Source: Gammaproteobacteria bacterium (GTDB lineage: Bacteria > Pseudomonadota > Gammaproteobacteria > BTQY01). From it: a stretch of 64,000 nucleotides of DNA. The notes beneath the pieces were generated by a model. That model did not search any database and had not been told where the DNA came from. It saw only the letters and a list, made by a program, of their open reading frames with translations. Of the stretch, positions 33,849-55,736 are shown one piece after another (the stretch's first letter is position 1; each line of letters starts with the position of its first letter). Made by a program: the position numbers and the translations under genes. The DNA is taken from contig BTQY01000001.1 of assembly GCA_036986115.1 (NCBI GenBank), positions 43,807 through 107,806 on the forward strand, read 5' to 3'.

Positions 33849-33880
33849 TTGACCTGTGTCTTACACACATCTTTTATTTT
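33849..33880 (+). promoter_or_regulatory. MerR-family-type promoter (element A): TTGACC-N20-TATTTT with a partial dyad ACCTGTG...ACACA
   Basis: -35 TTGACC at 33849-33854. 20-bp spacer. -10 TATTTT at 33875-33880. It is the weakest member of the five-element family. Sits upstream of YVTN propeller gene 1. Confidence 0.4.
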
Positions 33881-34159
33881 AGCTAGCGCAGGAAGCCGGC
33901 GGAGACGGGTAATTCTATGGTCTGTTCGCGGTGATATGAGCACTTTGTAGGCACCAATGCGACGGGAATTTTTGGCGAATAAAAGAGCGCGATATGCCAG
34001 AAAGTCTCTGGAAAAGCTAATTGGATGTTGATTGAAATATAGTCAACTAATGCCCCCTGAGCAGAGTGGGCGGCAAAGGCATTATCTGTGGAAGCAAGCT
34101 CCTACCCGCAAATGGTTCGTTTGTTCGCTCATAGTTTCAATGACATAGGAGATGAAGTA

Positions 34160-35287
34160 ATGAACAGAAACCTGATTTTATCCTTCAGTATAATTATGGC
34201 GGGAACGTTTTTTGCCGGTTCCCTCCCTGCCGCAGCGGGGGAAAAGGCAAGTGAAGCAACGATTCTTTATATCACCAACGAGGGAAGCAATACGCTTGCC
34301 GTGATAGATGGAGAAAAACGCAAAGTTATCGCTTCCATCGCGGTAGGAGAAGTGCCCCATCACCCATGGCTTGTGCCGGGGGGTAAGTACGTGTTTACGG
34401 ATAACAGGGGTGAGGACACCCTGTCGGTGGTAGACGTCAATACCTACAAGCTGATAAAGACGATCACCGTAGGCAAAGTCCCCACTCACATGGTGTTTAC
34501 GCCCGACGGAAAATATGCCTATGTGGCCAATACCAAAGACAATTCTACATCAGTAATCGATCTCGCCAAGCTTGAGGTCGTCGCCACCATTAAAACTGGC
34601 GGAGGCTCCCATGATCCCGCCATTACCCCGGACGGCAAGTATGTCTACGTCACCGCCCGAAAGCCTGGTCATGTTGCTGTAATTGATACGGCCACTAACA
34701 AGGTCATTAAGACCATACCCACGGGCGCCAAAGCGAACGGCGTGCGTATGACCAGGGATGGCAAGTTTGTCTGGGTAGGTAACACCAAGGCCGGAACGGT
34801 GTCTGTCATTGATACCGCTCTAAATAAAGTAGTCGCCACAATTAAGTCCGGTGCCGGGACGCATAACATCCGTTTTTCCCCGGACGGCAAATATGCCTAC
34901 GTTGGTAATATGAAAGATGGCACCCACGCAGTAATCAACACGGCCACATACAAGGTCGTCGCGCGGATACCGACCGGCAAAGGCGCAAACATCGCCTACT
35001 TCCATCCAAACGGTAAGTACATCTACTTCTCCCTTAACAAAACCGATGAAATTCCGGTAGTGGATGCTACAACCAACAAGGTAATCAAGCGGATCCCAAT
35101 CGGTAAAGGCGGCACGCACAACCTGGCTTTTGTCGACGATGGCAAGTACCTCTACGCCACCAGCTGGTTCGGCGATTATATTCTTGTGATTGATACCAGG
35201 AAAAATGAGGTCATCAAAAAGATACCGGCGAAGTTCTCCAACGGCATAAAAATAAAAGGTGCACCACCCGCAACCGGTAGGGGGTGA
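34160..35287 (+). CDS. YVTN-family beta-propeller repeat protein, periplasmic
   Basis: ATG at 34160 starts a signal peptide (MNRNLILSFSIIMAGTFFAGSLPAAAG). About seven repeats of the ~40-aa YVTN unit (...GKYVYVxN...TVSVIDTATNKV...). Confidence 0.75.
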   Translation: MNRNLILSFSIIMAGTFFAGSLPAAAGEKASEATILYITNEGSNTLAVIDGEKRKVIASIAVGEVPHHPWLVPGGKYVFTDNRGEDTLSVVDVNTYKLIKTITVGKVPTHMVFTPDGKYAYVANTKDNSTSVIDLAKLEVVATIKTGGGSHDPAITPDGKYVYVTARKPGHVAVIDTATNKVIKTIPTGAKANGVRMTRDGKFVWVGNTKAGTVSVIDTALNKVVATIKSGAGTHNIRFSPDGKYAYVGNMKDGTHAVINTATYKVVARIPTGKGANIAYFHPNGKYIYFSLNKTDEIPVVDATTNKVIKRIPIGKGGTHNLAFVDDGKYLYATSWFGDYILVIDTRKNEVIKKIPAKFSNGIKIKGAPPATGRG

Positions 35288-35295
35288 GGAGCCTG

Positions 35296-35340
35296 GGAGC
35301 AGCCGTTCAACAGAGTGGCTGCTCCGTCCGGCTGGTTTTT
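35296..35340 (+). terminator. Rho-independent terminator candidate downstream of YVTN gene 1
   Basis: 9-bp stem GGAGCAGCC/GGCTGCTCC with a 12-nt loop, followed by GGTTTTT within about 10 nt. Confidence 0.45.
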
Positions 35341-35788
35341 CGGTAGCCACACCCCTTATTAGCCTGACGGACAAAGGGAACGTTCCATTTTTTCACGGTT
35401 TTGGTGAAACGGCTGATCCTTGTCCATCGTGTTTCTTTGGATGATTCCGCTGCCCGTGTTTGCGGTGTCGGTGCCACCGGTCGTTAGTCCACCGTGGCTG
35501 ATTGTAATCATGGACATCCATTACTGCCTCAAGATCCCCCTGAATAAAACGCGTGTAATCTTCAGTGCTGGCAATATGCGTGCGTGAATTGGGCCCAGAG
35601 AACAATTGTTGCTAATATAAGCTGGTACTAAACAATAATTGTGAACTAGTGGGGCCACACTATCGCCCATTTATTGCAGGATGCGATCATGCGGCAAATT
35701 GTTCCCTGGCATGGGGGCCATGCCCGGGCGGGCGCGGTTACCGTTACCAGCGCCATGACCAGCGCGACCGTTCCCAGAGACAAAGGAT

Positions 35789-38146
35789 ATTGTCATACAA
35801 CAGCTGACTAGACAATTTGTTCGTGCCTATGCCCACTGGCTGCTACGCTGGCGCTGGCCGGTACTGATAGCGTGCCTGCTTGCCGTCACGGCTGCCGGTT
35901 ACGGTTTGCGCAATTTCGCATTCACCGCCGATTACAAAGTCTATTTCGGTAAAGACAATGTCGAACTTATTGCCTTTGAAGAACTGGAAAACACCTATAC
36001 CAATACCGAGAATATTCTTTTCGTCCTGCAGCCGAAGGACAAAAACATTTTCACCCGTGAGACCCTGGAGATCGTCAGACAACTGACCCAAAAGGCCTGG
36101 CAGATCCCTTATTCCATTCGCGTGGACTCTGTCACCAATTACCAGCACACCGAGGCCAATGGTGACGACCTGACGGTGGCCAACCTGGTGGCCAGGCCGC
36201 TGGCGCTGGATGCCGCCGGCCTGGCACGGATCAGGGCCGTGGCGCTGCAGGAACCGGTGCTGGCAGGACGTTTGATCTCATACGATGGCGGTACCACTGG
36301 CGTCTCGGTGACCCTGCAGTTTCCCGGCACTGAGCATACCAGCCACCTGCCGGAATCCGTGGCCTATGCCGAAAAATTGACCGCGGAATTGCGCACCACC
36401 CATCCCGGCCTGACGGTGGCGCTTACCGGCATCTCCATTTTCAGTGCCGCGGAGATCCAGGTCAGTGAATCGGATTCCTATGTGCTGGTGCCGATAATGT
36501 ACGGCCTGATGATCACGCTGCTGCTGGTGCTGTTGCGCTCGGTTTCGGGTACCGTAGCGACGCTGCTGGTGGTCAGCCTGTCGGTCGTCACCGCCCTGGG
36601 CCTCATGTCCTGGCTCGGTATCAAGATGAACGCGTCGACCGCGTTGTCGCCGATCATCATTCTTACCCTTGCCATCGCCGATAGTGTGCATATCCTGTTG
36701 ACCAGCTTCCAGGAAATGCATGCCGGCCGCTCGAAACATGACGCCCTGGTGGAAAGCCTGAACATCAATGCCGAGCCGGTGTTTCTGACCACATTGACGA
36801 CGGGTATTGGTTTCCTCAGTCTCAATTTTTCTGATTCACCACCATTTAACGACCTCGGCAATATCACTGCCATCGGTGTGGCCGCGGCGTGGCTATTCTC
36901 CATGACCTTCCTGCCGGCACTGGTGTCAATCCTGCCGCTGCGAATTCGAGCGCAAACCAGTGACCGGCGCCTGGCCATGGAACGCTTCGGCGACTTCGTG
37001 GTTGGGCGGCGCGTGCCGATGTTCTGGGGCATGATGACCCTGAGCCTTATCATCATATCGTTCATCCCCCGTCTCGAGCTGGATGACCGCTTTATCCAGT
37101 GGTTTGACGAAAGTATTCCGTTTCGTGTCGATACGGATTTCGCCACCGCCAACCTGACGGGCCCTTATGTGCTGGAATATTCCGTCGATTCCGGCGAGTC
37201 TGGTGGCATCTCGGACCCCAAATATCTGCAACGACTGGAGGCCTTTGCGGCCTGGCTGCGGGCACAGCCGGAGATTACCCATGTCAGCAGCTTTACTGAT
37301 GTGATGAAACGCCTGAACAAATCCATGCATGCCGACGACCCCGACTGGTACCGATTGCCAGACAAGCGCGAGCTGGCGGCCCAATATTTGTTGTTATACG
37401 AAATGTCCCTGCCCTACGGTCTGGATCTCAACAGCCAGATTGATCTGGACAAATCCGCGACCCGCCTGACGGCAACCCTGGATACCATTCCGCAGAAAAA
37501 GATCATCGCGCTGATTGAGCGTGGCGAGATCTGGCTTTCGGAAAACATGCCACCAGCCATGCAGGCCAGGGCAACAGGTACGATTGTTATGTTCGTGAAT
37601 CTTGCGATGCGGAATATTATCGGCATGTTGGGTGGCACCGCCCTGGCCTTCGTGCTGATTTCCATCACACTTGTCTTCGCCCTGCGCAGCATCCGCCTGG
37701 GCCTGATCAGTCTGATCCCCAACTTCCTGCCGGTACTGATCACCTTTGGATTATGGGCGATTTTTGTTGGTGAGATCGGCATCATCGCTTCCATGATCAC
37801 GGCCACCAGTATGGGGCTCATCGTCGACGACACGGTGCATATACTCAGCAAGTATCGCCGCGCCAAACGCGAACACAATCTGGGCACCCACGACGCCATT
37901 CGCTACAGCTTTTCCCGTGTCGGCCAGGCGCTGTGGGTGACCACCTTGATCATGATCGCCGGCTTTTCTGTGCTGGCCTTTTCCAGTTACAAACTAAATG
38001 TGGACATGGGCATACTCACTATCATGGCCGTTGGCGTGGCCCTGACGATGGATTTCCTGCTGCTGCCAGCGTTATTAATGTTTATGGACAAAGACAAACA
38101 ATGCAGCTGCGCTACCTGCCGGGAGAAGGGCCTCGCCACCACATGA
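35789..38146 (+). CDS. RND-superfamily exporter (MMPL/HpnN-like, two SSD-type 6-TM bundles). 5' end is anomalous.
   Basis: TM1 (RQFVRAYAHWLLRWRWPVLIACLLAVTAAGYGL) is encoded in-frame upstream of the first canonical start (TTG at 35906). In-frame stop at 35756-35758. Only ATT (35789), ATA and CTG codons are available as upstream starts. Alternatively there is a frameshift from the SD-preceded ATG at 35686. Confidence 0.7.
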   Translation: MVIQQLTRQFVRAYAHWLLRWRWPVLIACLLAVTAAGYGLRNFAFTADYKVYFGKDNVELIAFEELENTYTNTENILFVLQPKDKNIFTRETLEIVRQLTQKAWQIPYSIRVDSVTNYQHTEANGDDLTVANLVARPLALDAAGLARIRAVALQEPVLAGRLISYDGGTTGVSVTLQFPGTEHTSHLPESVAYAEKLTAELRTTHPGLTVALTGISIFSAAEIQVSESDSYVLVPIMYGLMITLLLVLLRSVSGTVATLLVVSLSVVTALGLMSWLGIKMNASTALSPIIILTLAIADSVHILLTSFQEMHAGRSKHDALVESLNINAEPVFLTTLTTGIGFLSLNFSDSPPFNDLGNITAIGVAAAWLFSMTFLPALVSILPLRIRAQTSDRRLAMERFGDFVVGRRVPMFWGMMTLSLIIISFIPRLELDDRFIQWFDESIPFRVDTDFATANLTGPYVLEYSVDSGESGGISDPKYLQRLEAFAAWLRAQPEITHVSSFTDVMKRLNKSMHADDPDWYRLPDKRELAAQYLLLYEMSLPYGLDLNSQIDLDKSATRLTATLDTIPQKKIIALIERGEIWLSENMPPAMQARATGTIVMFVNLAMRNIIGMLGGTALAFVLISITLVFALRSIRLGLISLIPNFLPVLITFGLWAIFVGEIGIIASMITATSMGLIVDDTVHILSKYRRAKREHNLGTHDAIRYSFSRVGQALWVTTLIMIAGFSVLAFSSYKLNVDMGILTIMAVGVALTMDFLLLPALLMFMDKDKQCSCATCREKGLATT

Positions 38147-38287
38147 TCACGCCATAAGGAGGAGCATCAGGACGCTATGTCTGATGGGTTATTGACCTGT
38201 ATGTTACACATAGGTGCTATATATAAGATATGTTCTAGAGAGCTACCCATCGTGGATAGCTCTGTGGAGGAACAAAGGAGGTGTGTG

Positions 38288-38647
38288 ATGAAAGAGCTAC
38301 GATGGCAAGACTGGGCAATTGTCCTGCTGGGTGTGTGGCTTGTGCTCTCGCCGGTGTTTGGCATCGGCGTCGTTAATGATGTGGCCGCATTCAACTCCTA
38401 TCTGACCGGCACGGCGGTGGCGATATTTGCAAGCGTGGCACTCGCCCGCCCGCAGTTGTGGGAGGAATATACTAACCTGTTCCTGGGACTCTGGTTGATC
38501 ATCGCGCCGTTTTTCCTGGGCTTTTCGAATCAGACAGGCCCGATGTGGAACCAGATCATTGTGGGCCTTCTGATCGGTGGTACCGCCCTGGCGGTTACCT
38601 TGCAGAAGACGACGCCAACGGCGGGGCACGGTCACGGGCACGCATAA
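38288..38647 (+). CDS. SPW-repeat small membrane protein
   Basis: AAGGAGG ribosome-binding site. Four predicted transmembrane segments with SPV/APF motifs (VLSPVFGIG, IIAPFFLGF) typical of the SPW-repeat family. Confidence 0.55.
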   Translation: MKELRWQDWAIVLLGVWLVLSPVFGIGVVNDVAAFNSYLTGTAVAIFASVALARPQLWEEYTNLFLGLWLIIAPFFLGFSNQTGPMWNQIIVGLLIGGTALAVTLQKTTPTAGHGHGHA

Positions 38648-38861
38648 CGGCTTTTTGCTGACTGACAGGAGGCAGTGAACGTCCCGGATCCGAAAGGTGC
38701 GAGCGGGCAGAGGGTCTGGTAACAGATCCGTGTCCGCGCTGTCACCGGGCAGGGTCCGGGCCGCTTTTGTGTGCACGTAAAAGGACCGGCACCGCCGTGG
38801 ATTGACGGACCCTGGTCCTGGTGATGGTCATCAGGGTAACGACTATGAGTAGGGAGAAATC

Positions 38862-39659
38862 ATGAGAGCCATTATGTTGAGTATTGCTGCCGTAATGACG
38901 TTCGCAGTACCTGTGCTGAGCATTGCCGTCGAGGATCCGCTGGCCAGGGGTGAAGCCGTCGCCCGCGAGTGGGATCGCCGTGACCGCGGCTTCGGTGACA
39001 GCAAGACGACCTTAAGGATGATCCTGGAGAACCGTCAGGGGAAACAAAGCGAACGCCGGCTGCGTATGGAGATACTTGAAGCGGCGGACGAAAATGACGG
39101 TGACAAGTCACTGGTGGTTTTCGAGGTTCCGCGTGACGTCAAGGGCACGGCACTGCTGAGCTACGCGCATATCCTGGAAGCGGATGACCAGTGGCTTTAC
39201 CTGCCGGCGTTGAAACGCGTCAAACGTATCTCATCGAGCAACAAATCCGGCCCCTTCATGGGCAGCGAGTTTGCCTATGAGGACATCAGTTCCCAGGAGC
39301 TGAAGAAATATGATTATAAATGGCTGCGCGACGAGCCCTGTGGCAAGTCTGAATGCTTTGTGCTGGAACAGCGGCCGCTGTACAAGAACTCGGGCTACAC
39401 TCGTCAGGTCGCCTGGTACGACAAGGATGAGTACCGCCTGCAACGTATCGACTATTACGACCGCAAGGACGATCTACTGAAGACGCTCACCTTCGGTGAG
39501 TACAAGCAACATCTTGGTAAATACTGGCGCTCCCACAACATGTACATGGTCAATCAACAGACGGGCAAGAAAACCAGACTGGTGTATGAAGAATTCAAGT
39601 TCAGGAACGGGCTGAAGGACAAAGATTTTACACAAAACCGTCTGAAACGCATGCGTTGA
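38862..39659 (+). CDS. LolA-like outer-membrane lipoprotein-sorting family protein
   Basis: Signal peptide. About 265 aa. The LolA-like fold family is commonly encoded next to MMPL-type RND exporters. The call rests on pattern and context. Confidence 0.6.
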   Translation: MRAIMLSIAAVMTFAVPVLSIAVEDPLARGEAVAREWDRRDRGFGDSKTTLRMILENRQGKQSERRLRMEILEAADENDGDKSLVVFEVPRDVKGTALLSYAHILEADDQWLYLPALKRVKRISSSNKSGPFMGSEFAYEDISSQELKKYDYKWLRDEPCGKSECFVLEQRPLYKNSGYTRQVAWYDKDEYRLQRIDYYDRKDDLLKTLTFGEYKQHLGKYWRSHNMYMVNQQTGKKTRLVYEEFKFRNGLKDKDFTQNRLKRMR

Positions 39660-43090: not shown

Positions 43091-46000
43091 TTGAGCGAAG
43101 TGATGCAGAGAAAAAAACTTGGTATATCAGGATTTACTTATAAAGATCTGTTTACGCAAGATGGTTTACAAAAACTCGATAATGAGTTTGTTCTCTATCT
43201 GAAACAATCAGATGAGGTCCTTTACTCACAATTACTGGACTATCGTTCTAAAGCTGATCCCATAGCGGGGGGATCCTTGTCCACCAGTCTGCTGGTTCTT
43301 TCCTGTGCACCAATACTTGAAGCATTTGTCGCTGAACTATTTGAAATTAAAGAAGAAACCAGGCAGGCAAGAGAAAGCACTCTTTCCCACGATGTCATTA
43401 TCTCATTCAAAAAGACCTTTGTGCTGCGGCGCGCACGACGACGCCTGTTAAAAAAAGAAGCGATTGAAACCTTTGATGAGCTTGACCGCTGGCTGGATCA
43501 GGCGCTCGCAGAACACACAATAGATGACCCGGATCAGGAACGGGCCGTGTCGTTGCTTGGTGAGCTTTTGCTATCTGACCAGGATAACAATAAAGACCAG
43601 ATTGAATTGTTAACACGCTGGTGCATTCGTGCCATGACCACCCCTGAGGGACAAACCAGGGTCAGCGACTGGGTCTGCTTTCAACTGCCGCAAGGTCTGG
43701 ATTACGCATCGTTAGTACCTGTGCAGGAACTTGCAGGAGACAAATTCAATCGCTTACAAGCGCAACCCGATAATTATAGATTACGTGATGGCTTCAAACT
43801 CACCGACACACGAATGAATGCCCGCCAGATACAGAATGAAGTCAATTACTGCGTTTACTGTCACAAGAATGAAGGTGATTACTGTTCGAAAGGCTTTCAC
43901 GAAAAAAAAGGTGAGCCGGAAAAAGGATTCAAAAAAAATCCACTTGATGTAACACTCACTGGCTGCCCACTAGGTGAAAAGATATCTGAAATGCAGGCGC
44001 TTAAGCGAGACGGCCATGCAATCGCGGCCCTTGCAACGATCATGATTGACAATCCTATGTGTCCTTCAACGGGGCACCGGATTTGTAACGATTGCATGAA
44101 GGGGTGTATTTATCAAAAGCAGGAACCGGTTAACATCCCCGAAATTGAAACACGCTGTCTCACCGACGTGTTGTCACTGCCCTGGGGTGTGGAAATATAT
44201 GACCTGTTGACCCGTTGGAATCCGTTAAGACAGAAACAATGGTTGCCTAAGCCTTACAATGGCTTAAACGTGCTTATTACAGGTATGGGCCCCTCCGGAT
44301 TTACGCTGGCACACCATCTTTTGATGGAAGGGTTCGCAGTGGTCGGCACGGATGGTCTGAAAATCGAACCACTTCCGCGGACACTCATCGACAACCCTGT
44401 TGAACATTACAGTGACATAGAAGATCAGTTAGACGAACGAATCATGACCGGTTTTGGCGGTGTCACAGAATATGGCATTACCGTACGTTGGGACAAGAAT
44501 TTTCTAAAATTAATCTATCTCACACTGATGCGCCGGCCTTATTTCCAGGTATTTGGTGCTGTACGTTTCGGTGGAACCATTAGAGTGGAAGATGCCTGGG
44601 AACTGGGTTTTGACCATGTCGCTATTGCAGTCGGTGCTGGTCTGCCGCAGGCCTTACCCGTGCCCGGGAGTTTGGCGCCCGGAATGCGACAGGCAAATGA
44701 TTTTCTTATGGCCTTGCAGCTTAGCGGTGCGGCCAAGGCCTCCAGCCTGGCTAATTTACAAATCAGGTTACCCGCAGTTGTCATCGGTGGCGGTCTGACT
44801 GGCATCGACACGGCAACGGAAGTCCAGGCCTATTACATTCAGCAAGTAGAAAAGTTGCTCTACCGATTTGAAAAACTGGTAGAGACCATTGGAAAGGACG
44901 CAATCTACCAGCAGTTAGATGAAGTGTCGCGATTGATTCTGGAAGAACAACTTGCCCATGGGAACCTGGTAAAAGAAGAACGTCAGCGGGCATCGAGCAA
45001 AAAAGAAGAACCGGATTTTATTTCTTTGATCCGAAGCTGGGGTGGTGTCACTGTTGCCTACAGACGAAATATGAATGAATCACCCGCGTACCGGAGTAAC
45101 CATGAAGAAGTCAGGAAGGCGCTGGAAGAAGGTATTTATTATGCGGCCGGCATCGAACCTCTCGAAGTCAAAGTCGATCAGTTCGGTCATTGCGAATCGT
45201 TGCTATGTGTAGTGCGCGAAAAAGATAAAGATGGGAATTGGTACAATACAGATAAAAAGTTCGATTTGCCTGCTCGCGGTATCTTTGCCGCTACAGGGGC
45301 ACGACCTAATGTGGCCTATTCATTCGAACATCCAAAAAGGTTTTTAAAGGAAAACGGCCATTATCAAACGTTTAATCTGGAAAACAATAAACTGATATCA
45401 ACACCGACCGCAGAACATATCAAGAAAGACAATTTTGGTGCATTTACCTCCTATGAGGATCAGGACAGCAAGCTAAATCACCGCGTCACATTTATCGGAG
45501 ACACTCACCCGGTGTTTAATGGCAATGTCGTAAAAGCGGTTGCATCCGGCATGCGGGTGTATCCTGAAATAGTGGCATCTTTTGGTCAACTTGCATCGCA
45601 ACAAGGTAATGAGGAGACATACCAGGCATTCAGTAAAAAGATCGCGTGGCTTTTTACTGCCACTATCGACGATGTTATCCGACATAATCCAACAACGCTT
45701 GAATTGAGAATCCAGGCGCCGATGGCGGCAAGGCGTTTCAAACCCGGACAATTTTTTCGTCTACAGAACTATGAAAGTTCAGCGCCCGTTATTGGTGATA
45801 CCACATTACAAACGGAAACTATGGCGCTAACAGGCGCTCTGGTCGATAAGGAAAAAGGCCTGGTTTCTCTCATGATAATGGAAAAGGGCACGAGCTCAAG
45901 AATCTGCGCCACCTTGAAAAAAGGCGATCCTGTTTCCCTGATGGGCCCAAGTGGGGTACGTATGAGAATTCCGGATAACAGGGAAAATATCCTGATAGTC

Positions 46001-46645
46001 GGCGATACACTTTGCATCCCGCATATTCTGGGTGTTGGGCCAGCCATGCTCGAAGCAGCTAATAAAGTGTGCTTTATCCTGCATCTTGATTCTGCCGATG
46101 AGTTGTTTTGCCAGCAACAACTGGAGCAATCAGCAACAAATATAGTGTGGAATGTCAAAAAAGGTGAATTGATAAAATCCAGTCGTCCCCATGATATCTC
46201 CACATGCGGTGACTTACTGGATGTTGTTAATCAGTTTTCAGATGGCTCACTTCCTGGTGATATTAATAATACGTTTGCGGCTAAAGACATTGATAGAATT
46301 ATCATCGTCGGTAATCAGGAACTGGTACGCAGTCTGCGCGATATATACGAAAGTAAATTAATGAACACCATGCCCAAGGTCGGCCTGAACGTCACCGCAT
46401 CCATCAGTACACCAATGCAATGCATGCTAAAAGGGGTTTGCTCGCAATGTTTACAATGGCAAATAGACCCACAAACCGGCAAACGCACCAAAGCCGTCTT
46501 TAGTTGCTCATGGCAAGATCAGCCCCTGCATATGGTTGATCTGGATAACTGGAAAGACAGACTCGGACAAAACCGGTTACAGGAGGGGATATCTAATCTT
46601 TGGTTAGACCACCTGTTTAAACTGCAGGAGATAGAAAAAATATAG
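43091..46645 (+). CDS. Large multidomain Fe-S flavoprotein: unknown N-terminal domain + GltD/NfnB-like module + PyrK/FNR-like module with a C-terminal [2Fe-2S] motif
   Basis: Cys clusters (CVYCHKNEGDYC; NPMCPSTGHRICNDCMKGC). Two Rossmann GxGxxG motifs (ITGMGPSGF; VIGGGLTGID). C-terminal FNR-like domain and CMLKGVCSQC...C. 1184 aa. Confidence 0.75.
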   Translation: MSEVMQRKKLGISGFTYKDLFTQDGLQKLDNEFVLYLKQSDEVLYSQLLDYRSKADPIAGGSLSTSLLVLSCAPILEAFVAELFEIKEETRQARESTLSHDVIISFKKTFVLRRARRRLLKKEAIETFDELDRWLDQALAEHTIDDPDQERAVSLLGELLLSDQDNNKDQIELLTRWCIRAMTTPEGQTRVSDWVCFQLPQGLDYASLVPVQELAGDKFNRLQAQPDNYRLRDGFKLTDTRMNARQIQNEVNYCVYCHKNEGDYCSKGFHEKKGEPEKGFKKNPLDVTLTGCPLGEKISEMQALKRDGHAIAALATIMIDNPMCPSTGHRICNDCMKGCIYQKQEPVNIPEIETRCLTDVLSLPWGVEIYDLLTRWNPLRQKQWLPKPYNGLNVLITGMGPSGFTLAHHLLMEGFAVVGTDGLKIEPLPRTLIDNPVEHYSDIEDQLDERIMTGFGGVTEYGITVRWDKNFLKLIYLTLMRRPYFQVFGAVRFGGTIRVEDAWELGFDHVAIAVGAGLPQALPVPGSLAPGMRQANDFLMALQLSGAAKASSLANLQIRLPAVVIGGGLTGIDTATEVQAYYIQQVEKLLYRFEKLVETIGKDAIYQQLDEVSRLILEEQLAHGNLVKEERQRASSKKEEPDFISLIRSWGGVTVAYRRNMNESPAYRSNHEEVRKALEEGIYYAAGIEPLEVKVDQFGHCESLLCVVREKDKDGNWYNTDKKFDLPARGIFAATGARPNVAYSFEHPKRFLKENGHYQTFNLENNKLISTPTAEHIKKDNFGAFTSYEDQDSKLNHRVTFIGDTHPVFNGNVVKAVASGMRVYPEIVASFGQLASQQGNEETYQAFSKKIAWLFTATIDDVIRHNPTTLELRIQAPMAARRFKPGQFFRLQNYESSAPVIGDTTLQTETMALTGALVDKEKGLVSLMIMEKGTSSRICATLKKGDPVSLMGPSGVRMRIPDNRENILIVGDTLCIPHILGVGPAMLEAANKVCFILHLDSADELFCQQQLEQSATNIVWNVKKGELIKSSRPHDISTCGDLLDVVNQFSDGSLPGDINNTFAAKDIDRIIIVGNQELVRSLRDIYESKLMNTMPKVGLNVTASISTPMQCMLKGVCSQCLQWQIDPQTGKRTKAVFSCSWQDQPLHMVDLDNWKDRLGQNRLQEGISNLWLDHLFKLQEIEKI

Positions 46646-46782: not shown

Positions 46783-48099
46783 TCAGTTGACGACGACCAT
46801 CTGGTGGCCCTCGCCACGCACCGTAATCTTACCGATCACCTTGAGTTGTTTCGCGTCAACGACCCAGACGAAGGGTTTTTTCCTGCTGGATACGTAGATC
46901 TTGCCGGTGTTACCGATCACCTTGACATGATAGGGCGCCGGATCGAGCTTCAGGGTACGCACCTTGCCGGTTTTGACATCGAGAGCGACCAGCTTGTTGT
47001 CCTTCTTGGCGCTGGCAAACAAGGTCTTGCCATCCGCCGAGATATCAATGCCATGGGGTTTATTGCCAATGGTAAATGTTTTTACCACTTTGAGTTTTTC
47101 CAGCGAAACCTTGGATATCGTTCCACCGCGGCCATTATTGGTATAGACGAATTTTTCGTCCGGAGACATCAGGATGTGTTCCGGGCCTTTGCCAACCAGT
47201 ATGTTCCTGCTGACGATCCAGTTTTTGGTATCGATGACGCTGAGTGTGTTATTACCCGCATTACTCACGTACATCTGCGCACCGCCATCGGCAAACACGA
47301 CATAGTTCGGTTGTGGCCCGGTGTAGATGTTGCGAAATATCTTCTTGGTTGCCAGATCAATCAGACTAATCGTCCCGGCAGTCGTGTGAGCAGATACGGC
47401 ATACTTCCCATCTGGTGTAACAAAGGTGTGATGCGCCATCCCCCTGACCTTGATGGTGGTTTCCAGTTTGTTATCCGCCACCCGGATCAGTGAGACAGTG
47501 CTGATACCCACTGCGGGGAGCAAACCACCTTTCTGTGCTGCATGGTGCTTTTTATGATCAGCATCTGACATGCCTTTGGGTTTTTTCATCTTGGACTGGC
47601 CGGATTTGCTCATGTTGGCATGGTCCTTCTTCACCGGAGGCTCGGTTGTTGCCTTCGGCTTGCCGCCCATCGCCGAATGATCCTGTGTCTTTTTATCAGC
47701 ACCCGGTTGGGGATGATGTTTCTTATGATCCGCCTCGGATACTCCGGCAGGCTTCGCCATCGTTGATGCAGCAGATTTTGGCTTACCAGTCTTGGATGAC
47801 ATCATTGCATGTCCTGCCGTTTTCCCGGATGACATCATTCCATGTCCCCCCATTTTCGGTCGACCCGCTACCACCTCATCGTTGGAGCCCGCAACCAGGT
47901 ATTCGCCATTGGGGGTCAATGACAGGCCGTGAATATTTTTGAAACCACTGATCTTGCCGATTGTCTTGTCCGTCGCCGCATCCACGATCAGTATTTCATT
48001 CGCAGAGCCCAGCGGTATGTATACGGTCGGACTTGCCAGTGATGTCAGCGGGGCCAACATGGCGGCCCCACCGAGTAGTACGAATTTGAATGTATTCAT
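46783..48099 (-). CDS. YVTN-family beta-propeller protein with a His/Met-rich low-complexity insertion (putative periplasmic metal binding)
   Basis: Signal peptide. YVTN repeats at both ends. Insertion of about 110 aa (HGMMSSGKTAGHAMMSSKTGKPK...ADHKKHH...ADHKKHH) encoded by imperfect tandem DNA repeats. Confidence 0.75.
   Translation of the reverse strand: MNTFKFVLLGGAAMLAPLTSLASPTVYIPLGSANEILIVDAATDKTIGKISGFKNIHGLSLTPNGEYLVAGSNDEVVAGRPKMGGHGMMSSGKTAGHAMMSSKTGKPKSAASTMAKPAGVSEADHKKHHPQPGADKKTQDHSAMGGKPKATTEPPVKKDHANMSKSGQSKMKKPKGMSDADHKKHHAAQKGGLLPAVGISTVSLIRVADNKLETTIKVRGMAHHTFVTPDGKYAVSAHTTAGTISLIDLATKKIFRNIYTGPQPNYVVFADGGAQMYVSNAGNNTLSVIDTKNWIVSRNILVGKGPEHILMSPDEKFVYTNNGRGGTISKVSLEKLKVVKTFTIGNKPHGIDISADGKTLFASAKKDNKLVALDVKTGKVRTLKLDPAPYHVKVIGNTGKIYVSSRKKPFVWVVDAKQLKVIGKITVRGEGHQMVVVN
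47794..47847 (-). repeat. 33-bp imperfect tandem repeat (2 copies) inside the propeller gene, encoding MMSS(G/K)-type His/Met motifs
   Basis: GGATGACATCATTGCATGTCC at 47794 and GGATGACATCATTCCATGTCC at 47827. Confidence 0.6.
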
Positions 48100-48196: not shown

Positions 48197-48228
48197 AGTG
48201 TAGAACCTAAGTGTTACTTACAGGTCAA
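48197..48228 (-). promoter_or_regulatory. MerR-family-type promoter (element B): TTGACC-N20-TACACT with dyad ACCTGTAAGTAACACTTAGGT
   Basis: On the minus strand, -35 is at 48223-48228 and -10 at 48197-48202. About 90 nt upstream of the propeller-2 start. Confidence 0.55.
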
Positions 48229-48508
48229 GTGTTTTACCAAATTGTAATGATAAAGGCCAGCGGTATCGGATAAAAGGCGGTCACTGGCCGCCACTGGCAA
48301 GGGTCGCGATGACGCGAAGGAATTCACTCGTGTCGTGGGTGCGTGGATGTACCCCAGGGGCATGATGTACAGGAAGTACAAATGTCGCGGGCGCATGAAC
48401 GCACCCCAAGGGCACTTCTGCACTTTGTTCGGGCGCTCCGTAGCGACCGAGCTGCAGACCCCCTGTCGCGCTGGCACTACCCAGGTGATATTCAAACTCT
48501 TGCACCAG

Positions 48509-48540
48509 AGTGTAGAACCTATGTGTTACTCACAGGTCAA
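48509..48540 (-). promoter_or_regulatory. MerR-family-type promoter (element C, tandem copy): TTGACC-N20-TACACT with dyad ACCTGTGAGTAACACATAGGT
   Basis: Same orientation as element B, about 310 bp further upstream. The core matches B at 31 of 34 positions. Confidence 0.5.
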
Positions 48541-48683: not shown

Positions 48684-49244
48684 ATGAAAATAAAATTACT
48701 TGTAATACTTCTGCTTGCTATGGCCAGCACACCCAGTTTTGCCAAAGAATTTATTTACCAGGGCAAGGTGAAAGGTATGGTCTGTGCATTTTGTGTTTAT
48801 GGTGTGAGTAAAAGTATTGCAAAGATCCCGGGCGTTAATGCCGAAACGGTTAATGTTGACCTGAAATCGGGTCAAGTGAATTTTCACAGTTCTTCAGAAT
48901 TGAGTTTCAAAAAAGTATCAAGTGTCTTTAAGGGCTCAGGGTTCAAGCTGGTTTCGCTTGAAAAATCCAGTGAGGCGACACACAAAATGGCAAGCTACGA
49001 AAGCAAACCCACATTGGTTTTTAAACTCGCTAACACAGGTATCGATAAATATAGCAGCATCATCGAGTCTATCGGTAACATTGCTGCTGCTGATGCATCC
49101 AAGATAGTCATTACCGCGCCTGAATCAATTGAAATAAAGATATTAAAGCCCATGATTGGCGGCAAACAACAATCCATCCGGGTTCAATATATATTGAAGA
49201 ATGATGACGGAATGAAAATAGAATTATTCCAAAAATCAAATTAA
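48684..49244 (+). CDS. Periplasmic heavy-metal-associated (HMA) domain protein
   Basis: ATG at 48684 (MKIKLLVILLLAMASTPSFA signal peptide). HMA-like GMVCAFC metal-binding motif. Confidence 0.55.
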   Translation: MKIKLLVILLLAMASTPSFAKEFIYQGKVKGMVCAFCVYGVSKSIAKIPGVNAETVNVDLKSGQVNFHSSSELSFKKVSSVFKGSGFKLVSLEKSSEATHKMASYESKPTLVFKLANTGIDKYSSIIESIGNIAAADASKIVITAPESIEIKILKPMIGGKQQSIRVQYILKNDDGMKIELFQKSN

Positions 49245-49543
49245 TGAGTCAGGTCTGTCTGACAATATAACCATACAAAAACAGTCATAATCCGGGAATC
49301 GGGTGAGTAAAGCTTAAAAGGATCTGCCATGCAGTTATGGGGTGTGCATTAGTATCCCGAAAAGTGTTGTTCTTTATCAATATTATTTAATTATTCGAAT
49401 GAATATAATTTATACGTGAAATTATAACAGGGTTATAACTGCGATATTATTACATATTTTTTCTTTTTACTGGCACTGGAACTCCATAGAAGCTGTTGTT
49501 GTCTATACTTACATATTAAAGATTAAGTTAATGGGAAAGATAT

Positions 49544-50020
49544 ATGTCTAAATACAATCGTTTCCGTCGAGCATTCCTGCAGGCCGCCGGGCTTTTCGGT
49601 GCCGGCATGGTCACGACTAAAGTTCAGGCACATCATACTGATTCTCATTTTAACGATTCCTCTGCGCATAAAGTAGTCTTCCAATGCAATAAAGTTGAAC
49701 CAGAGTATCTGGGTCATATTTTGTTTTCAGCGGGAGTGATGCTGAGAAAATATGGTGATGATGTTGAAATAGTTATCACAACATTCGGCCGTGGCGTGAA
49801 CCTGTTGGGAAAGAACCCGATCAGACCTATTTCCAAAGAGCATCAGGAAAGAGCAGGCTCACTGGCTGCTTACGGAGTGGCCTTTCACATCTGTCATAGC
49901 ACCATGAAGTCACTTAACTGGGGCAAAGAAGATATTGTCGCTTATGCCAAGGTCGTACCGGCTGGTGCGATAGACCTGATGGAATTACAGGAAAAGGGAT
50001 TCAGCTACATTAGTGAATAA
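49544..50020 (+). CDS. Tat-exported DsrE/DsrF-like (YchN-fold) protein
   Basis: Twin-arginine motif NRFRRAFLQAAGLFGAG. DsrE-like core (KVVFQCN...AFHICHSTM) with a conserved Cys. Confidence 0.55.
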   Translation: MSKYNRFRRAFLQAAGLFGAGMVTTKVQAHHTDSHFNDSSAHKVVFQCNKVEPEYLGHILFSAGVMLRKYGDDVEIVITTFGRGVNLLGKNPIRPISKEHQERAGSLAAYGVAFHICHSTMKSLNWGKEDIVAYAKVVPAGAIDLMELQEKGFSYISE

Positions 50021-50074
50021 TTTCTGGCCTGGGCTTATACGCACAGAGTAAACATGAACGCGCCAGATTGCTGC

Positions 50075-51202
50075 TCATTCGAAATCTTCCATCTCCAGTT
50101 CACGGTAGACAAAATTAGCATTGGCGCGTTGGTTAAGTTTATACAGGCGTGTACTGCGCCAGTCTTTGAAATCTGTCTGGTCTACCGCGTTTAATAAATC
50201 GACATCATTGGCAATTGCCTTACGCATGGCTGCGCGTAATCTTTTAATATAAGATTGTGTTCGCTTGACCATAGGGAATGGCGATGTTTGCGCACTGCCA
50301 TGACCGGGGATCATTAATTTAACCTTGGCAAATTTCTTCAGTAACCAGTCCTGGGCCTCAATGGCACGCAAAGAATTACCATCACCCATATACGTGGTGC
50401 GCTGATTAAAAGCCAAATCCGAGATCCACACAACTTGTTGCCCTGGTTGGTATACCACCAAATCACCATACGAATGATGTTTGCCAACATTGTAAATTTC
50501 AAATGTTCTGCCGCCAGTCTTTAGCGTATAACTGGAAAACAGTTTGCCGCTAATGGGAATATCAGGACCAACTCCGGCAAATCCAGCCATGTCCGGTTTG
50601 ATAAAGGTACGACGAAAAGCAGCTGAACTATCGATTTTTTCCGAACGAATATAATCCAGTGTCCCGATGTGGGCGATTACCTTAACGCCACCTAGCTGGC
50701 GAAAAGCATTGGCACCGTAGGAATGATCCGGGTGGTTGTGGGTAACAATGAGATATTTGACTGGTTTATTGGTGACCGAACGAATGGTGGCGATCATACG
50801 CTTGCCGAGTTTAGGGGTACCCAGCGAATCGATCACAACCACCCCATCGTTCGTCACTACAAAACCAGCATTGCCATTCCAGCCACGATTGTACTGATCC
50901 ACTTCCGCGATGTTACCAAAGAAAAAATAGGTATCGTTTGCCACCTTAAAATAAGGCAGCGGGGCATCGGCCTTGTCCGTTTCCTTAAGCACGATATTAG
51001 GTATCTCAGTGGTATCGATGGCTTTTTTCGGCACATAATATCGTGATGGATCAGTACCGAAACCATGCGCCACGGGGACAGCCTGTTTATCTGACTGTTT
51101 GTCTGACGCAGCAAATGCGGCACTGAAAAACATCATACACACTGCCGTGAAGAAAAGTGTCTGTCTTTTACTCATCCTGGCATCTGGATTAACCGTTCTC
51201 AT
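50075..51202 (-). CDS. Periplasmic MBL-fold metallo-hydrolase
   Basis: Signal peptide. HxHxDH motif (THNHPDHSYG). Starts 1 bp downstream of the yeeE-like gene, so an operon is likely. Confidence 0.7.
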   Translation of the reverse strand: MRTVNPDARMSKRQTLFFTAVCMMFFSAAFAASDKQSDKQAVPVAHGFGTDPSRYYVPKKAIDTTEIPNIVLKETDKADAPLPYFKVANDTYFFFGNIAEVDQYNRGWNGNAGFVVTNDGVVVIDSLGTPKLGKRMIATIRSVTNKPVKYLIVTHNHPDHSYGANAFRQLGGVKVIAHIGTLDYIRSEKIDSSAAFRRTFIKPDMAGFAGVGPDIPISGKLFSSYTLKTGGRTFEIYNVGKHHSYGDLVVYQPGQQVVWISDLAFNQRTTYMGDGNSLRAIEAQDWLLKKFAKVKLMIPGHGSAQTSPFPMVKRTQSYIKRLRAAMRKAIANDVDLLNAVDQTDFKDWRSTRLYKLNQRANANFVYRELEMEDFE

Positions 51203-51203
51203 A

Positions 51204-52409
51204 TTAACTTACCTGTTTCAGTTTTCCTATACGCGGTATCAAACGAACATCGGCCAGTGCTGCCAGTAATGCATCCATCACACTGGCGTCCTCATAGACC
51301 ATACGATAGTATTCAAACTTCATCGTTATCGCACAGCCAAGAATAAATGATGCAAAGGCAACCAGCGAACCCAATGCAAGGGTAGAGAAACCTGTAATTC
51401 CCTGTCCAAAGGTACAACCCATTGCCAGCACACCACCGATACCCATTAATATGCCACCAAAAAGATAACGTACGAGATCCTTCATCGAACTAAACCATTC
51501 AAATCGCAGGTTGCCGGTAAATAAAGCATAGATAAAGGAACCCACAATCACACCAACAAGAATAGCAACACCGAAAGTAATCAGTGATATTTCCAGAGGA
51601 TTAGCAAGATAATAGAGCGTTTCACCCATTGGATTAACAAAAGTGAATGACATGGCGCCGACACCCGGTGGTGGTGAGTCCATAAAACTGGCGGCCTCAA
51701 CCGCCTCCTGACCTAATGGTCCAGCTGTAACGTACCAGCCGGCCACAACTATCAGGCCAACGACTGTCCCACCTAATATATTATCGAAGCGACTGAGGAA
51801 ATCACGCGAACGAAAAATAAAGTACAGGAACGTCAGTATAATTAATGCGGCTGCCAATGGGTGAAACCAGTTACTGTCTGCGACACCGAACAGACTGCCC
51901 ACCATTGTGGTGATCTGTTGACTATTCATGCCATAATTTTGCAAATCAATCGTCAATGGTGACATCCAGATATGAAAACCGTAATGATAGAAATCCGTCT
52001 TGGTCATCAGGAAGGCAAAAATCCCACCGATAAACAACACAAACAACGACTTCATATTACCGCCACCGATACGAATCAGCGTCTTGTTGACGCAACCACC
52101 TGCCAGCGTCATGCCAACACCAAAAATAAGGCCACCCAGCAAATAACGGATCCAGGCAAAATTGGCGGTGCGATACGGTGGCATGGTCATATCAAGATTG
52201 ATGATGCCGAGTTGTTCAAGCAACAGGACCCCAGACATGGCAACAGCAATAGCTAATAGCCATGCATACATTCGCCCCTTATCGCCCATATTGACCCAGT
52301 CTGAAATCGCCCCCATGGTGCAGAAATTGGTTTTGTGAACCACGATACCCAGAACTACTGCCAGGCTAAAACCTGACAAAATGACATACCATATTGATGC
52401 GCCTTCCAT
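51204..52409 (-). CDS. YeeE/YedE-family inner-membrane transporter (thiosulfate/sulfur-compound TsuA-like), two-repeat form
   Basis: Two conserved Cys-loop motifs (NFCTMGAIS and AMGCTFGQG). About 10 transmembrane segments. Confidence 0.8.
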   Translation of the reverse strand: MEGASIWYVILSGFSLAVVLGIVVHKTNFCTMGAISDWVNMGDKGRMYAWLLAIAVAMSGVLLLEQLGIINLDMTMPPYRTANFAWIRYLLGGLIFGVGMTLAGGCVNKTLIRIGGGNMKSLFVLFIGGIFAFLMTKTDFYHYGFHIWMSPLTIDLQNYGMNSQQITTMVGSLFGVADSNWFHPLAAALIILTFLYFIFRSRDFLSRFDNILGGTVVGLIVVAGWYVTAGPLGQEAVEAASFMDSPPPGVGAMSFTFVNPMGETLYYLANPLEISLITFGVAILVGVIVGSFIYALFTGNLRFEWFSSMKDLVRYLFGGILMGIGGVLAMGCTFGQGITGFSTLALGSLVAFASFILGCAITMKFEYYRMVYEDASVMDALLAALADVRLIPRIGKLKQVS

Positions 52410-52715
52410 TAAGTTCTCCTGTTACATGTTAGCTGTACTATTCTGATTGCAGCGTTTAAGTTTATGCCTGACCTGTTGCCCTGTTAGCTGATGGCCAATG
52501 CGTACGAGCCGCAGGTTTTAGCCTCATTTCATTATATTAATCGTTTTAATTTTAATTCACTACAACCACTATATGGCTTTCACCTTGAATATTATGGGGA
52601 TTTTGCCAATAACCAGCTAATTGCCTGGTATCAACTGCCCAGATGACAGCCATATTGCAACAGGATGCAAATAATTTCCTGTTTTAACATCGAGTTACGC
52701 ACTCATTAAATCATA

Positions 52716-52747
52716 AGGGTAGAACCTATGTGCAGCTCACAGGTCAA
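52716..52747 (-). promoter_or_regulatory. MerR-family-type promoter (element D): TTGACC-N20-TACCCT with dyad ACCTGTGAGCTGCACATAGGT
   Basis: On the minus strand, -35 is at 52742-52747 and -10 at 52716-52721. 8 of 10 dyad pairs are complementary. About 300-nt leader to the yeeE start. Confidence 0.55.
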
Positions 52748-52890
52748 GGATTTCCTGATCCTGGCTAATCAGTATTCCTGAAAAATATTAGTACAAGTCA
52801 GCAGTAGTGAGTATAAAATCAGCCTGATGGTCTTAACGGCAGTGTATAAATCAATCTGAATACCATCCCATCATGCAGAATCCCATGTCA

Positions 52891-53802
52891 TCATTTCTCA
52901 CTGGACTTGCCAAGATTCGTGTTTTCCAACGGGAGCAGCCTTACGTTCCAACGCCTTAACGCGGCATCATCCACTCGCAGGTTGCGGTAACCTGCTGCAT
53001 AGAACATGGCATAATTAAATGCTGAGCCAGTGCCACCCAGACAGGTCAGCAGCATCGGCCTGTCGGGATTGATTTTCATGCGTGCGAGCAGCCCTGGTAT
53101 TTTCGGTGCCTTGGCATACAACCGTCCATTGTCGGCCTTGCGCATGTAATCCTCCCATGGCTGATTGACGCTACCCGGGATGCGCCCGTAACGCGGATTG
53201 GCCTGAAACTTGCTTAATCCTTCAAAGTGGGTTGCTGGCCGGCCATCCACCAGTAAATAATGTTCGCGTATTTTGGCTAGTTCATCTGTTGTAATTTCCA
53301 GCGCAAGTATTGGTCGTGCGACGAAGTTGCCCGCCTGAACAGCATCGCTGTCATCTTCTATCGGACCATCAGCGGCTAACCAGCCATGCCATCCTTCATC
53401 GAGCACGCCGACGTTGGTATATCCCAACAAGTGAAACAGCCAGTACAGATAGAATGCGCCCAATATTTCATCTGTGTTGTTACCTTTGTAGTAAATCACC
53501 ACACCATCGTTATCGTTAATACCCAGTTTACGGATTTTATCTGCCAGCTTGTCAACCGATAAGCGCACCAGCGCCCCATCGCTGTCGACATAACGCCATG
53601 CGCTTTTGTTGGTAACCACACTACCCGGTATATGCCCATTAAAAGTAAAGTCCACCTCATCAGATACTTCAATAATTGCCAGGTCAGTCTGATTTATATT
53701 GTTAATCAGCCATTGCGGACTAACGCTTGCTGGCACTGATACCGCAAAGCTCTGGCCGGAGATGAGCAAACACGCAGTTACTATCATGAACCGATATTTC
53801 AT
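52891..53802 (-). CDS. Periplasmic tandem-rhodanese sulfurtransferase
   Basis: Signal peptide. Two rhodanese domains (GHIPGSV...; active-site loop LTCLGGTGSA). Confidence 0.75.
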   Translation of the reverse strand: MKYRFMIVTACLLISGQSFAVSVPASVSPQWLINNINQTDLAIIEVSDEVDFTFNGHIPGSVVTNKSAWRYVDSDGALVRLSVDKLADKIRKLGINDNDGVVIYYKGNNTDEILGAFYLYWLFHLLGYTNVGVLDEGWHGWLAADGPIEDDSDAVQAGNFVARPILALEITTDELAKIREHYLLVDGRPATHFEGLSKFQANPRYGRIPGSVNQPWEDYMRKADNGRLYAKAPKIPGLLARMKINPDRPMLLTCLGGTGSAFNYAMFYAAGYRNLRVDDAALRRWNVRLLPLENTNLGKSSEK

Positions 53803-54291
53803 ATGGCTTCCTAATGGTGCGGTGAAGAGTAACTACAACTATAAACTTACCAATACGGTAATTTCAACTTCCCTCACTTCGTGCAGCAAAAACGTTTTAT
53901 AGCGGTGCCCAAATCAAGGCAGAAAACCAGCCATAGCAAGCAACATCCTGAATCAGGTTAGTTGGCTGAGGCCCGTTCAGAGCAGTTTCCCTCGGGCATG
54001 AAATCCGCCTGCTCTTTCTGCCTTTTTCATCATAGATAAATACTTCAATCTCGTGAACGGTGCCCGGGTTTTTGGTTTCATAGCGGCCAATATCCGGGAC
54101 AGCCAGCCGTCGCCAGTGCCAGGGTCGCGAAGTTGGCACAGTTTTTTAAGGCCTTGCCCGGCATTCTCGGTAGTTCTTTGAATTGTTTGTAAATATTGGA
54201 TATATTTACTGTGGTTTTTCGTCAGTACGCATATTCTGTCAGACGTCCGTGACAGGGATTTATTTCATCTCAAACGGTAAAGGTAGAAAAG

Positions 54292-54323
54292 CTTGACCTA
54301 TGCCTAACGTACAGGTTATAGAC
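54292..54323 (+). promoter_or_regulatory. MerR-family-type promoter (element E): TTGACC-N20-TAGACT with dyad ACCTATGCCTAACGTACAGGT
   Basis: -35 at 54292-54297. -10 at 54318-54323. About 60 nt upstream of the cfa AAGGAGG/ATG. Confidence 0.5.
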
Positions 54324-55734: not shown

Positions 55735-55736
55735 TC

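Follow-up and report, generated by a model that had tools for sequence, protein, structure and literature searches.

The window analysed here, a stretch of 64,000 nucleotides from a Gammaproteobacteria bacterium (assembly GCA_036986115.1, contig BTQY01000001.1, positions 43,807 to 107,806 of the forward strand), carries a set of promoter-like sites in which a palindrome fills an extended spacer that separates the -35 hexamer from the -10 hexamer. This arrangement raises two questions: which regulator acts on these sites, and which signal does it sense? An earlier note on this DNA had pointed to a metal- or redox-responsive regulon of the MerR type, with the regulator gene outside the window, and the metal-responsive version of that proposal is supported here by at least 117 loci in other genomes, 73 of them with a gene of one regulator clade. 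According to our analysis, the sites are likely sigma-70 promoters of a regulon governed by this uncharacterised clade of the MerR family, whose inducer is most likely Cu(I) or Ag(I), and through it copper stress probably activates genes for the membrane, the periplasm and the uptake of sulfur.

Six promoter sites in the window

Pattern search and direct reading of the 64 kb yielded six sites of the form cTTGACC-N20-TAnnnT with a palindrome within the spacer. Five had been described in the earlier note, and all five TTGACC-N20 sites are present and correctly oriented upstream of genes; their coordinates stand for four, while site E begins at 54293 rather than 54292, and the proposed -10 sequence TAnnCT applies to sites B to E but not to site A, which has TATTTT. 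The sixth, site F, had been overlooked. The sites are listed in order of position, with scores from a position weight matrix (PWM) of 33 nt that was built from sites outside the source genome and run over both strands of the window.

Site A, 33849..33880, + strand: cTTGACC TGTGTCTTACACACATCTTT TATTTT; 28.4 bits; right half-site degenerate (ACACATCT)
Site F, 38192..38223, + strand: TTGACCTGTATGTTACACATAGGTGCTATATA; TTGACC TGTATGTTACACATAGGTGC TATATA; near-perfect dyad; 34.7 bits
Site B, 48197..48228, - strand: cTTGACC TGTAAGTAACACTTAGGTTC TACACT; 46.3 bits; proximal promoter of propeller 2
Site C, 48509..48540, - strand: cTTGACC TGTGAGTAACACATAGGTTC TACACT; 52.5 bits, the best consensus match; distal tandem promoter of propeller 2
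Site D, 52716..52747, - strand: cTTGACC TGTGAGCTGCACATAGGTTC TACCCT; 46.9 bits; promoter of the YeeE-MBL operon
Site E, 54293..54324, + strand: cTTGACC TATGCCTAACGTACAGGTTA TAGACT; 42.6 bits; promoter of the cfa operon

The hexamers are 20 bp apart at all six sites, including site F, where the -10 reads TATATA, and all six copies point at genes. The operator is a 21-bp palindrome of the 10-1-10 type, ACCTRTGTGT-N-ACACAYAGGT, which occupies promoter positions 4-24 and overlaps the -35 hexamer. Direct reading gives 8 of 10 complementary pairs at sites C and D and 7 of 10 at site E, in agreement with the seven to eight reported before. A search for TTGACCTRTG-N7-CAYAGGTT with up to three mismatches returned six matches in the window, compared with 0.16 expected; the pattern formerly suggested for checking, with an inner gap of nine nucleotides, finds nothing, as the true gap is seven. 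The PWM places the six sites at 28-52 bits and the next best position on either strand at -4. Site A is the weakest member (28 bits versus 43-52 for sites B to E). No canonical CueR box above chance was found in the window.

The genes behind the sites are given below. The earlier assignments of the YVTN propellers, YeeE, the metallo-beta-lactamase-fold (MBL) protein, the cyclopropane-fatty-acid (CFA) synthase, PEMT, YHS and patatin hold by Pfam.

34160..35287, + strand: YVTN/YncE-type 7-bladed beta-propeller 1 with signal peptide; TIGR02276 (beta_rpt_yvtn), 244.6 bits (Pfam, NCBIfam)
38288..38647, + strand: SPW-repeat small membrane protein; PF03779, 82 bits; C-terminal GHGHGHA tail
46783..48099, - strand: YVTN propeller 2, whose 120-aa insert is rich in His, Met and Lys (Pfam)
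51204..52409, - strand: YeeE/YedE-family sulfur-compound transporter; PF04143, 206.8 bits
50075..51202, - strand: secreted MBL-fold protein, SoxH-related; PF00753; 1 nt downstream of yeeE
54388..58005, + strand: cfa operon of five genes (Pfam), made up of the next five lines
54388-55734, + strand: CFA synthase (Pfam)
55737-56423, + strand: PEMT/ICMT-like methyltransferase (Pfam)
56458-56757, + strand: YHS-domain protein (Pfam)
56754-57023, + strand: DUF5676 protein with two transmembrane (TM) segments (Pfam)
56995-58005, + strand: patatin-like phospholipase (Pfam)

On direct reading, propeller 1 is followed by a terminator-like hairpin after its stop codon, and it looks monocistronic. Site F lies 64 nt upstream of the SPW gene. 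In propeller 2, His and Met make up 17% of the insert as against 4% of the remainder of the protein, and the whole protein is 100% identical to BMS9Abin26_0079 from a gammaproteobacterial metagenome-assembled genome (MAG). The NCBIfam SoxH_rel models match the MBL protein at 50075..51202 below their cut-off.

That the window holds no merR-like gene, as had been stated, was borne out by tblastn, in which CueR, ZntR, MerR and SoxR queries gave a best E-value of 0.7 and a member of the clade described below gave no match at a cut-off of 1e-3. Neither was a P-type ATPase or copA gene present in the 64 kb.

The motif and its linked regulator in other genomes

A single scan of species-representative genomes with the pattern TTGACCTRTRNNNNNCRYWYAGGTNNTANNNW, worth about 37 bits by our own estimate, returned at least 117 loci with at least 122 sites in other genomes, where we estimate about nine chance matches (37 bits over 1.2e12 positions). 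Counts per 117 loci refer throughout to the loci listed, which were selected by the motif and comprise up to 8 kb of sequence each. Their hosts are mostly marine and sulfur-oxidising Gammaproteobacteria, with Nitrospira in addition. Cultured hosts include Vibrio, Marinomonas, Halomonas, Cobetia, Hahella, Shewanella and Sedimenticola, and uncultured gammaproteobacterial ones include tubeworm and lucinid symbionts, Thiothrix, Methylomarinum and many MAGs from vents and sulfide chimneys. Beyond the Gammaproteobacteria, the motif occurs in Methyloversatilis, Nitrospira and Manganitrophaceae (Betaproteobacteria, Nitrospirota). The close relatives of the window among the loci are other bins of the BMS9A series, which, together with the source MAG, we take to originate from deep-sea massive sulfide deposits.

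Sequence conservation follows the promoter architecture. At positions 11, 12, 13 and 15, on which the search pattern placed no constraint, T, G, T and A are conserved over 117 sites and extend the dyad to 10-1-10. The hexamer TTGACC is preceded by C in 99 of the 117 sites, and the 7 nt upstream are A-rich. Twelve further dyads were found in the motif loci without selection for a -10 element; their spacer measures 20 bp in six and 19 bp in five cases, and TTG precedes the dyad in 10 of the 12. The spacer length was also checked in four orthologs of propeller 2 that had been picked by protein similarity alone (68-82% identity): all four have cTTGACC-N20-TAyACT upstream, so the spacer is conserved as the earlier proposal had called for. 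The left half-site of one of the four fell below the threshold of the dyad search, and this site was found by reading the upstream sequence. An alignment of the region upstream of cfa from six genomes shows only the promoter/operator conserved in 6/6, with diverged flanks, and a Shine-Dalgarno-like AGGAGG in 5/6.

Five loci are orthologs of window segments at the DNA level (76-85% identity), and all five, being motif-selected, carry the motif. Of the gene families of the window, those that stand behind it among the loci listed are cfa (six times), YVTN propellers (three), SPW and YeeE (two each), and a PEMT-like and an RND/MMPL gene (one each); periplasmic proteins rich in Met, an HMA protein of the CopZ type, a protein with a cupredoxin-like domain, DUF302 and SHOCT are also found there. 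The motif stands before SPW genes in L006 and L098, where the start codon follows about 93-96 nt after the first base of the motif (in L006 counted from an internal Met, MKEQRW, the called open reading frame (ORF) starting at +36). Orthologs of YeeE with the motif upstream occur in L008, L080 and L121, and L048 has the gene order of the window's cfa operon behind the motif at 81% DNA identity. In L087, copA is followed by PEMT, YHS and DUF5676 within a single operon, and in L005 by a PEMT-like gene that is truncated at the locus end. The counterpart of site B was identified in L046, L118, L119, L120 and L121. In L121 (JALTKS010000053, 3673-7251), rhodanese, YeeE and a propeller lie side by side, with one site before the propeller and a second, perfect site before YeeE; this order mirrors the neighbourhood in the window and supports a functional link among the three.

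The operon behind the motif in L095 (JAACFA010000244) comprises a regulator, a 500-aa protein whose N-terminus resembles a twin-arginine signal, SHOCT, a TlpA-like redoxin, a YVTN propeller, a small Cys/His-rich membrane protein and a PEMT-like protein. Several gene families of the window thus share one transcription unit with the regulator.

A gene for one clade of MerR-family proteins of about 140 aa occurs no more than 8 kb from the motif in 73 of the 117 loci; the signature of the clade is [ST]PC around residue 77 and C-x-[LI]IE around residue 125. The regulator is the first downstream gene in 55-59 of 110 cases, so the motif serves as its own promoter in about half of them, and a MerR-family gene with the motif upstream, which the earlier note had advised looking for, does exist in other genomes. 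The usual order is motif, regulator and then a P-type ATPase of 740-990 aa. A P1B ATPase is present in 68 of the 117 loci, with CPC in 55 loci and MSxSS in 45. With TIGR01511, the model for copper-translocating ATPases, two of them score 614 and 606 bits, above the cut-off of 397, and they carry CPC in TM4, YN in TM5 and MSxSS, of the type MxxSS, in TM6, which identifies them as P1B-1 Cu(I) ATPases. As the regulator sits behind its own motif and copA usually comes next, it appears to be auto-activated and tied to copper efflux.

The clade carries PF00376, PF13411 and PF09278 (MerR, MerR_1, MerR-DNA-bind) on all hits and comprises 541 clusters at E <= 1e-20 (90% identity clusters), which bear generic database names ('MerR family transcriptional regulator' or 'MerR family DNA-binding protein'). 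An AlphaFold2 (AF2) model (predicted local distance difference test, pLDDT, 85.5) has MerR topology with a helix at 79-114, and its best Foldseek matches are CadR, PbrR, CueR and MerR, all with probability 1.00. By sequence, the nearest solved structure is MerR of Bacillus megaterium (4ua1, E=8e-21). Five clade representatives were scored against NCBIfam models, with the following results.

ZntR NF007069: best 100 bits, cut-off 143
ZntR TIGR02043: best 94 bits, cut-off 168
MerR TIGR02051: best 95 bits, cut-off 151
CueR TIGR02044: 56-79 bits, cut-off 147.4
CueR NF007590: 29-57 bits, cut-off 244
CadR-PbrR TIGR02047: best 85 bits, cut-off 151

In an alignment with CueR, ZntR and Tn501 MerR, one conserved Cys of the clade coincides with CueR Ser77/ZntR Cys79 and the second with CueR Cys120. 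In place of CueR Cys112 the clade has a conserved Met-Pro-Asp-Gly (MPDG) and no Cys, and the dimerisation helix contains a four-residue insertion. The residue after the last Cys varies among His, Cys, Arg, Pro, Gln and Tyr. The only invariant Cys are therefore these two, one at each end of the coiled coil, and in a MerR-family dimer they would come from different subunits. The clade lacks the Cu(I) ligand set of CueR, and its operator is not that of CueR, having RTG at the corresponding positions.

Mechanism, inducer and rival explanations

The 20-bp gap is expected to leave the -35 TTGACC and the -10 TAnnnT over-spaced and out of phase for efficient open complex formation. A dimer of the clade metalloregulator would bind the operator that spans the -35 and the spacer, and on the model of CueR, MerR and ZntR its apo form would keep the promoter inactive. 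Once a thiophilic metal is bound, for which Cu(I) (or Ag(I)) is the most likely candidate, the spacer would be untwisted and kinked, allowing RNA polymerase to use both hexamers. The metal site is predicted to lie between the subunits and to consist of the two conserved Cys, one of which opens the dimerisation helix and the other the C-terminal helix. Such a mechanism is already well understood for the MerR family; the clade is uncharacterised, its operator is new and its predicted ligand set unusual. In the source MAG, the regulon would spread beyond efflux to the two propellers, the SPW protein, YeeE with the SoxH-like hydrolase, and a membrane-lipid module. As to the inducer, gene neighbourhood is what points to Cu(I) or Ag(I): a copper pump is co-transcribed with the regulator and accompanied by further genes of copper handling, which argues for these ions rather than for a general metal or redox signal.

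Several observations weigh against this reading. The metal is deduced solely from the neighbourhood, the regulator and copA are both missing from the window, a cognate regulator in the source genome is an assumption, and the activation of the six window promoters is likewise a prediction by analogy. Site A combines a degenerate half-site and a non-consensus -10 with a 279-nt leader (33881-34159), and it has no support from conservation, as a search for orthologs of propeller 1 gave relatives of only 30-44% identity and no close ortholog. The leader of site D is also long (306 nt, 52410-52715), and that of the YeeE orthologs in L008, L080 and L121 is shorter, at about 30-120 nt. Finally, the clade bears a Cys at the position that marks divalent sensors (ZntR C79, CadR C77) and misses an equivalent of CueR C112, which excludes a simple CueR-like Cu(I) site and leaves room for Zn, Cd, Hg or thiol chemistry, and several targets in the window are linked to sulfur (YeeE and the SoxH-like MBL protein, with rhodanese and DsrE nearby).

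These last points feed the strongest alternative, unlikely in our estimation, in which the promoters and the clade are the same but the inducer is a divalent thiophilic metal (Zn, Cd, Pb or Hg) or a thiol-reactive signal, for instance sulfane sulfur, polysulfide or an oxidant, which would bridge the two conserved Cys across the dimer interface or oxidise them. The placement of the Cys and the sulfur-linked targets, with rhodanese and DsrE adjoining, agree with it, as do the top NCBIfam scores to ZntR and MerR rather than CueR models, the best sequence match to a solved structure being the Bacillus Hg-MerR 4ua1, and the 20-bp spacer known from ZntR and firmicute MerR promoters (PMC1526738). The linked ATPase, however, has Cu(I)-type TM motifs and scores 614 bits with the copper model versus 407 and 374 with the Zn/Cd models, and the companion genes are typical handlers of Cu(I) (Met-rich periplasmic, CopZ-like and cupredoxin-like proteins). 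No gene of the merA/merT/merP or zntA/czcD type was seen among the genes checked behind the motif or the ATPases scored, the full 8-kb loci being unscreened, and a total of two invariant Cys fits the linear coordination of Cu(I)/Ag(I) more readily than the tri- or tetra-coordination of Hg or Zn.

A related idea, which we hold to be rather doubtful, is that the two-Cys site between the subunits reads thiol chemistry, either as Cu-thiolate or Cu-sulfide species or as sulfane sulfur bridging both Cys. If true, bacteria living on metal sulfides would couple copper efflux, import of sulfur compounds (YeeE, SoxH-like) and cyclopropanation, methylation and deacylation of lipids through one switch.

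It is very improbable that the sites are lineage variants of the boxes of canonical CueR/HmrR, ZntR, CadR/PbrR or Hg-MerR. In favour of this, the outer ACCT...AGGT and the placement of the 21-bp dyad, which begins at the ACC of the TTGACC -35, are as in E. coli PcopA, and some secondary sites have the CueR-like 19-bp spacer. With CueR/HmrR the clade also shares the MerR fold, a P1B-1 Cu(I) ATPase as linked target and a mechanism presumed to be the same; regulator and ATPase in one operon recall rhizobial actP-hmrR (PMC1526738). Compared with PcopA, most sites have one extra bp before the -10. The CueR operator reads ACCTTCC-N7-GGAAGGT with a 19-bp spacer, that of ZntR ACTCTGGAGTCGACTCCAGAGT with 20 bp, that of proteobacterial MerR TCCGTAC-N4-GTACGGA with 19 bp and that of firmicute MerR ACCGTGTAC-N4-GTACAGGGT with 20 bp (PMC1526738). 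The inner half-site RTGTGT is unlike the TCC of CueR, the CTGGAG of ZntR, the CTATAG of CadR/PbrR and the CGTAC of MerR (PMC1526738), so the earlier remark that the outer bases resemble CueR boxes while the inner half-sites differ was right. The motif strings are absent from 884 curated MerR-family sites (PMC5045206), the window lacks an above-chance CueR box, the linked regulators stay under every curated NCBIfam cut-off, and L049 possesses both a CueR-like gene and clade-related regulators.

The differences extend to the proteins and their genes. Unlike CueR, the clade has Cys for Ser77, MPDG without Cys at 112 and a metal loop of 11 residues versus 7 (C112-C120), and its promoters mostly have a spacer of 20 instead of 19 bp. 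Unlike in CueR/HmrR systems, the regulator gene comes first in the operon under its own regulated promoter, and the regulon is broader, including lipid modification, YVTN propellers, SPW and YeeE. The 20-bp spacer and the best sequence scores (NF007069, 4ua1) are shared with ZntR and firmicute Hg-MerR, and so is a Cys that begins the dimerisation helix and reaches across the dimer interface, as ZntR C79 and MerR C79/C82 do; however, the operators differ, the CC/H ligands of ZntR and the second-Cys ligand of MerR are lacking, and the linked transporter is a Cu-type ATPase rather than ZntA or mer genes. CadR/PbrR are the best structural match to the AF2 model and have a similar operator core (CCTRT...AYAGG-like) and a Cys77/78 ligand, but they differ in half-site spacing, in their Cd/Pb exporters and in a divergent gene organisation.

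That the motif is a repetitive extragenic palindrome or miniature mobile element devoid of promoter function, or an ordinary repressor operator with coincidental 20-bp spacing, can practically be dismissed; the earlier note had named a repetitive element as a finding that would refute its proposal. The motif is palindromic and intergenic, with several copies in 21 kb and sites B and C being 94% duplicates, but it is always oriented towards genes and is conserved across orders and phyla over diverging flanks. Its hexamers keep fixed positions, C is conserved at -36 and the tract upstream is A-rich. It also shows tight linkage to a single MerR clade and keeps a spacer of 19-20 bp even where spacer length was unselected.

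The operator strings were not found in the literature searched, which included two large comparative studies of MerR-family sites, and nothing relevant emerged that joins copper, MerR, CFA and YeeE. The parts seen of a paper on Vibrio parahaemolyticus CueR take the CueR sites from RegPrecise predictions and give no operator sequence.

The clade would form a fifth well-defined branch of metal-sensing MerR regulators, beside MerR, ZntR, CueR/HmrR and CadR/PbrR. It is widespread, occurring in tubeworm and clam symbionts, in vent and sulfide-deposit bacteria and in Nitrospira. The content of the regulon would offer a first functional handle for several families whose role is obscure, among them the SPW repeat, DUF5676, YHS, the PEMT/ICMT-like relatives of CzcN and YVTN propellers with Met/His inserts. 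The copper reading further predicts that copper stress leads to CFA and phospholipid remodelling and to the uptake of sulfur compounds in sulfide-associated bacteria. Direct testing is feasible since cultured hosts exist (Vibrio, Marinomonas, Halomonas/Cobetia, Sedimenticola). Suitable carriers among them are Marinomonas pontica/polaris, Vibrio pacinii/breoganii, Cobetia crustatorum and Sedimenticola selenatireducens DSM 17993, the last of which has at least two sites. The operator/regulator pair may serve as an orthogonal part for metal biosensors.

Surroundings of the sites

Site C is a 33-nt duplicate of site B with 94% identity, 312 nt upstream of it. An equivalent of this second tandem promoter is absent in the five orthologous loci examined, which have a single promoter. 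Within the 280 nt between sites C and B, ORFs of 74 and 93 aa look spurious and the predicted fold is unexceptional (z = -1.7). An imperfect inverted repeat of 18 nt (48337-48354 / 48389-48406) and a weak terminator-like hairpin (48292-48276) were observed in the interval, which could give rise to a short Cu-induced transcript or reflect mere promoter duplication. Rfam returned no family anywhere in the window, this interval included, and neither an ORF nor a known RNA was found in the leader of site D (52410-52715).

Between the units of propeller 2 and YeeE, at 48684-50020 on the + strand, lie genes for a secreted HMA-domain protein (CopZ-like CxxC) and a DsrE-like protein, divergent from site C and without a motif of their own. 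Site C was considered as a bidirectional promoter for the divergent HMA gene and rejected, as the opposite strand has no usable -35/-10.

The regulon genes occupy a stretch of about 38 kb between the housekeeping genes miaB-phoH-corC-lnt (14872-20354) and leuS (59544-62051), which suggests that the metal/sulfur cluster is an accessory insertion of about that length. The same stretch encodes, at 43091-46645, a pyridine-nucleotide-disulfide oxidoreductase-like protein of 1184 aa, besides a redoxin of the TlpA type and another MBL protein. It also holds an RND/MMPL (HAE3-type) transporter at 35790-38146 on the + strand. The first ATG/GTG/TTG of this gene is at 35906, but the frame that encodes the conserved N-terminus (IQQLTRQFVRAYAHWLLRWRW) runs on for about 115 nt further upstream, so that either the start is non-canonical, the start codon has mutated or the sequence contains an error. 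The ortholog of this transporter in L015 (82% identical) has the MerR-type motif directly upstream, and the copy in the window is without it.

Outside this stretch, a sugar cluster at 2727-9324 contains a sucrose-phosphate synthase/phosphatase fusion (4663-6855, - strand), an alkaline/neutral invertase (7927-9324), a PfkB kinase, a glucokinase and a 6-phosphogluconolactonase. A weak dyad-like match inside the invertase gene (8341-8361, GTCTATGTGCAACATACGGGT, 8.6 bits) lacks promoter hexamers and was put down to chance. The cluster likely represents compatible-solute metabolism in a chemolithotroph-like MAG.

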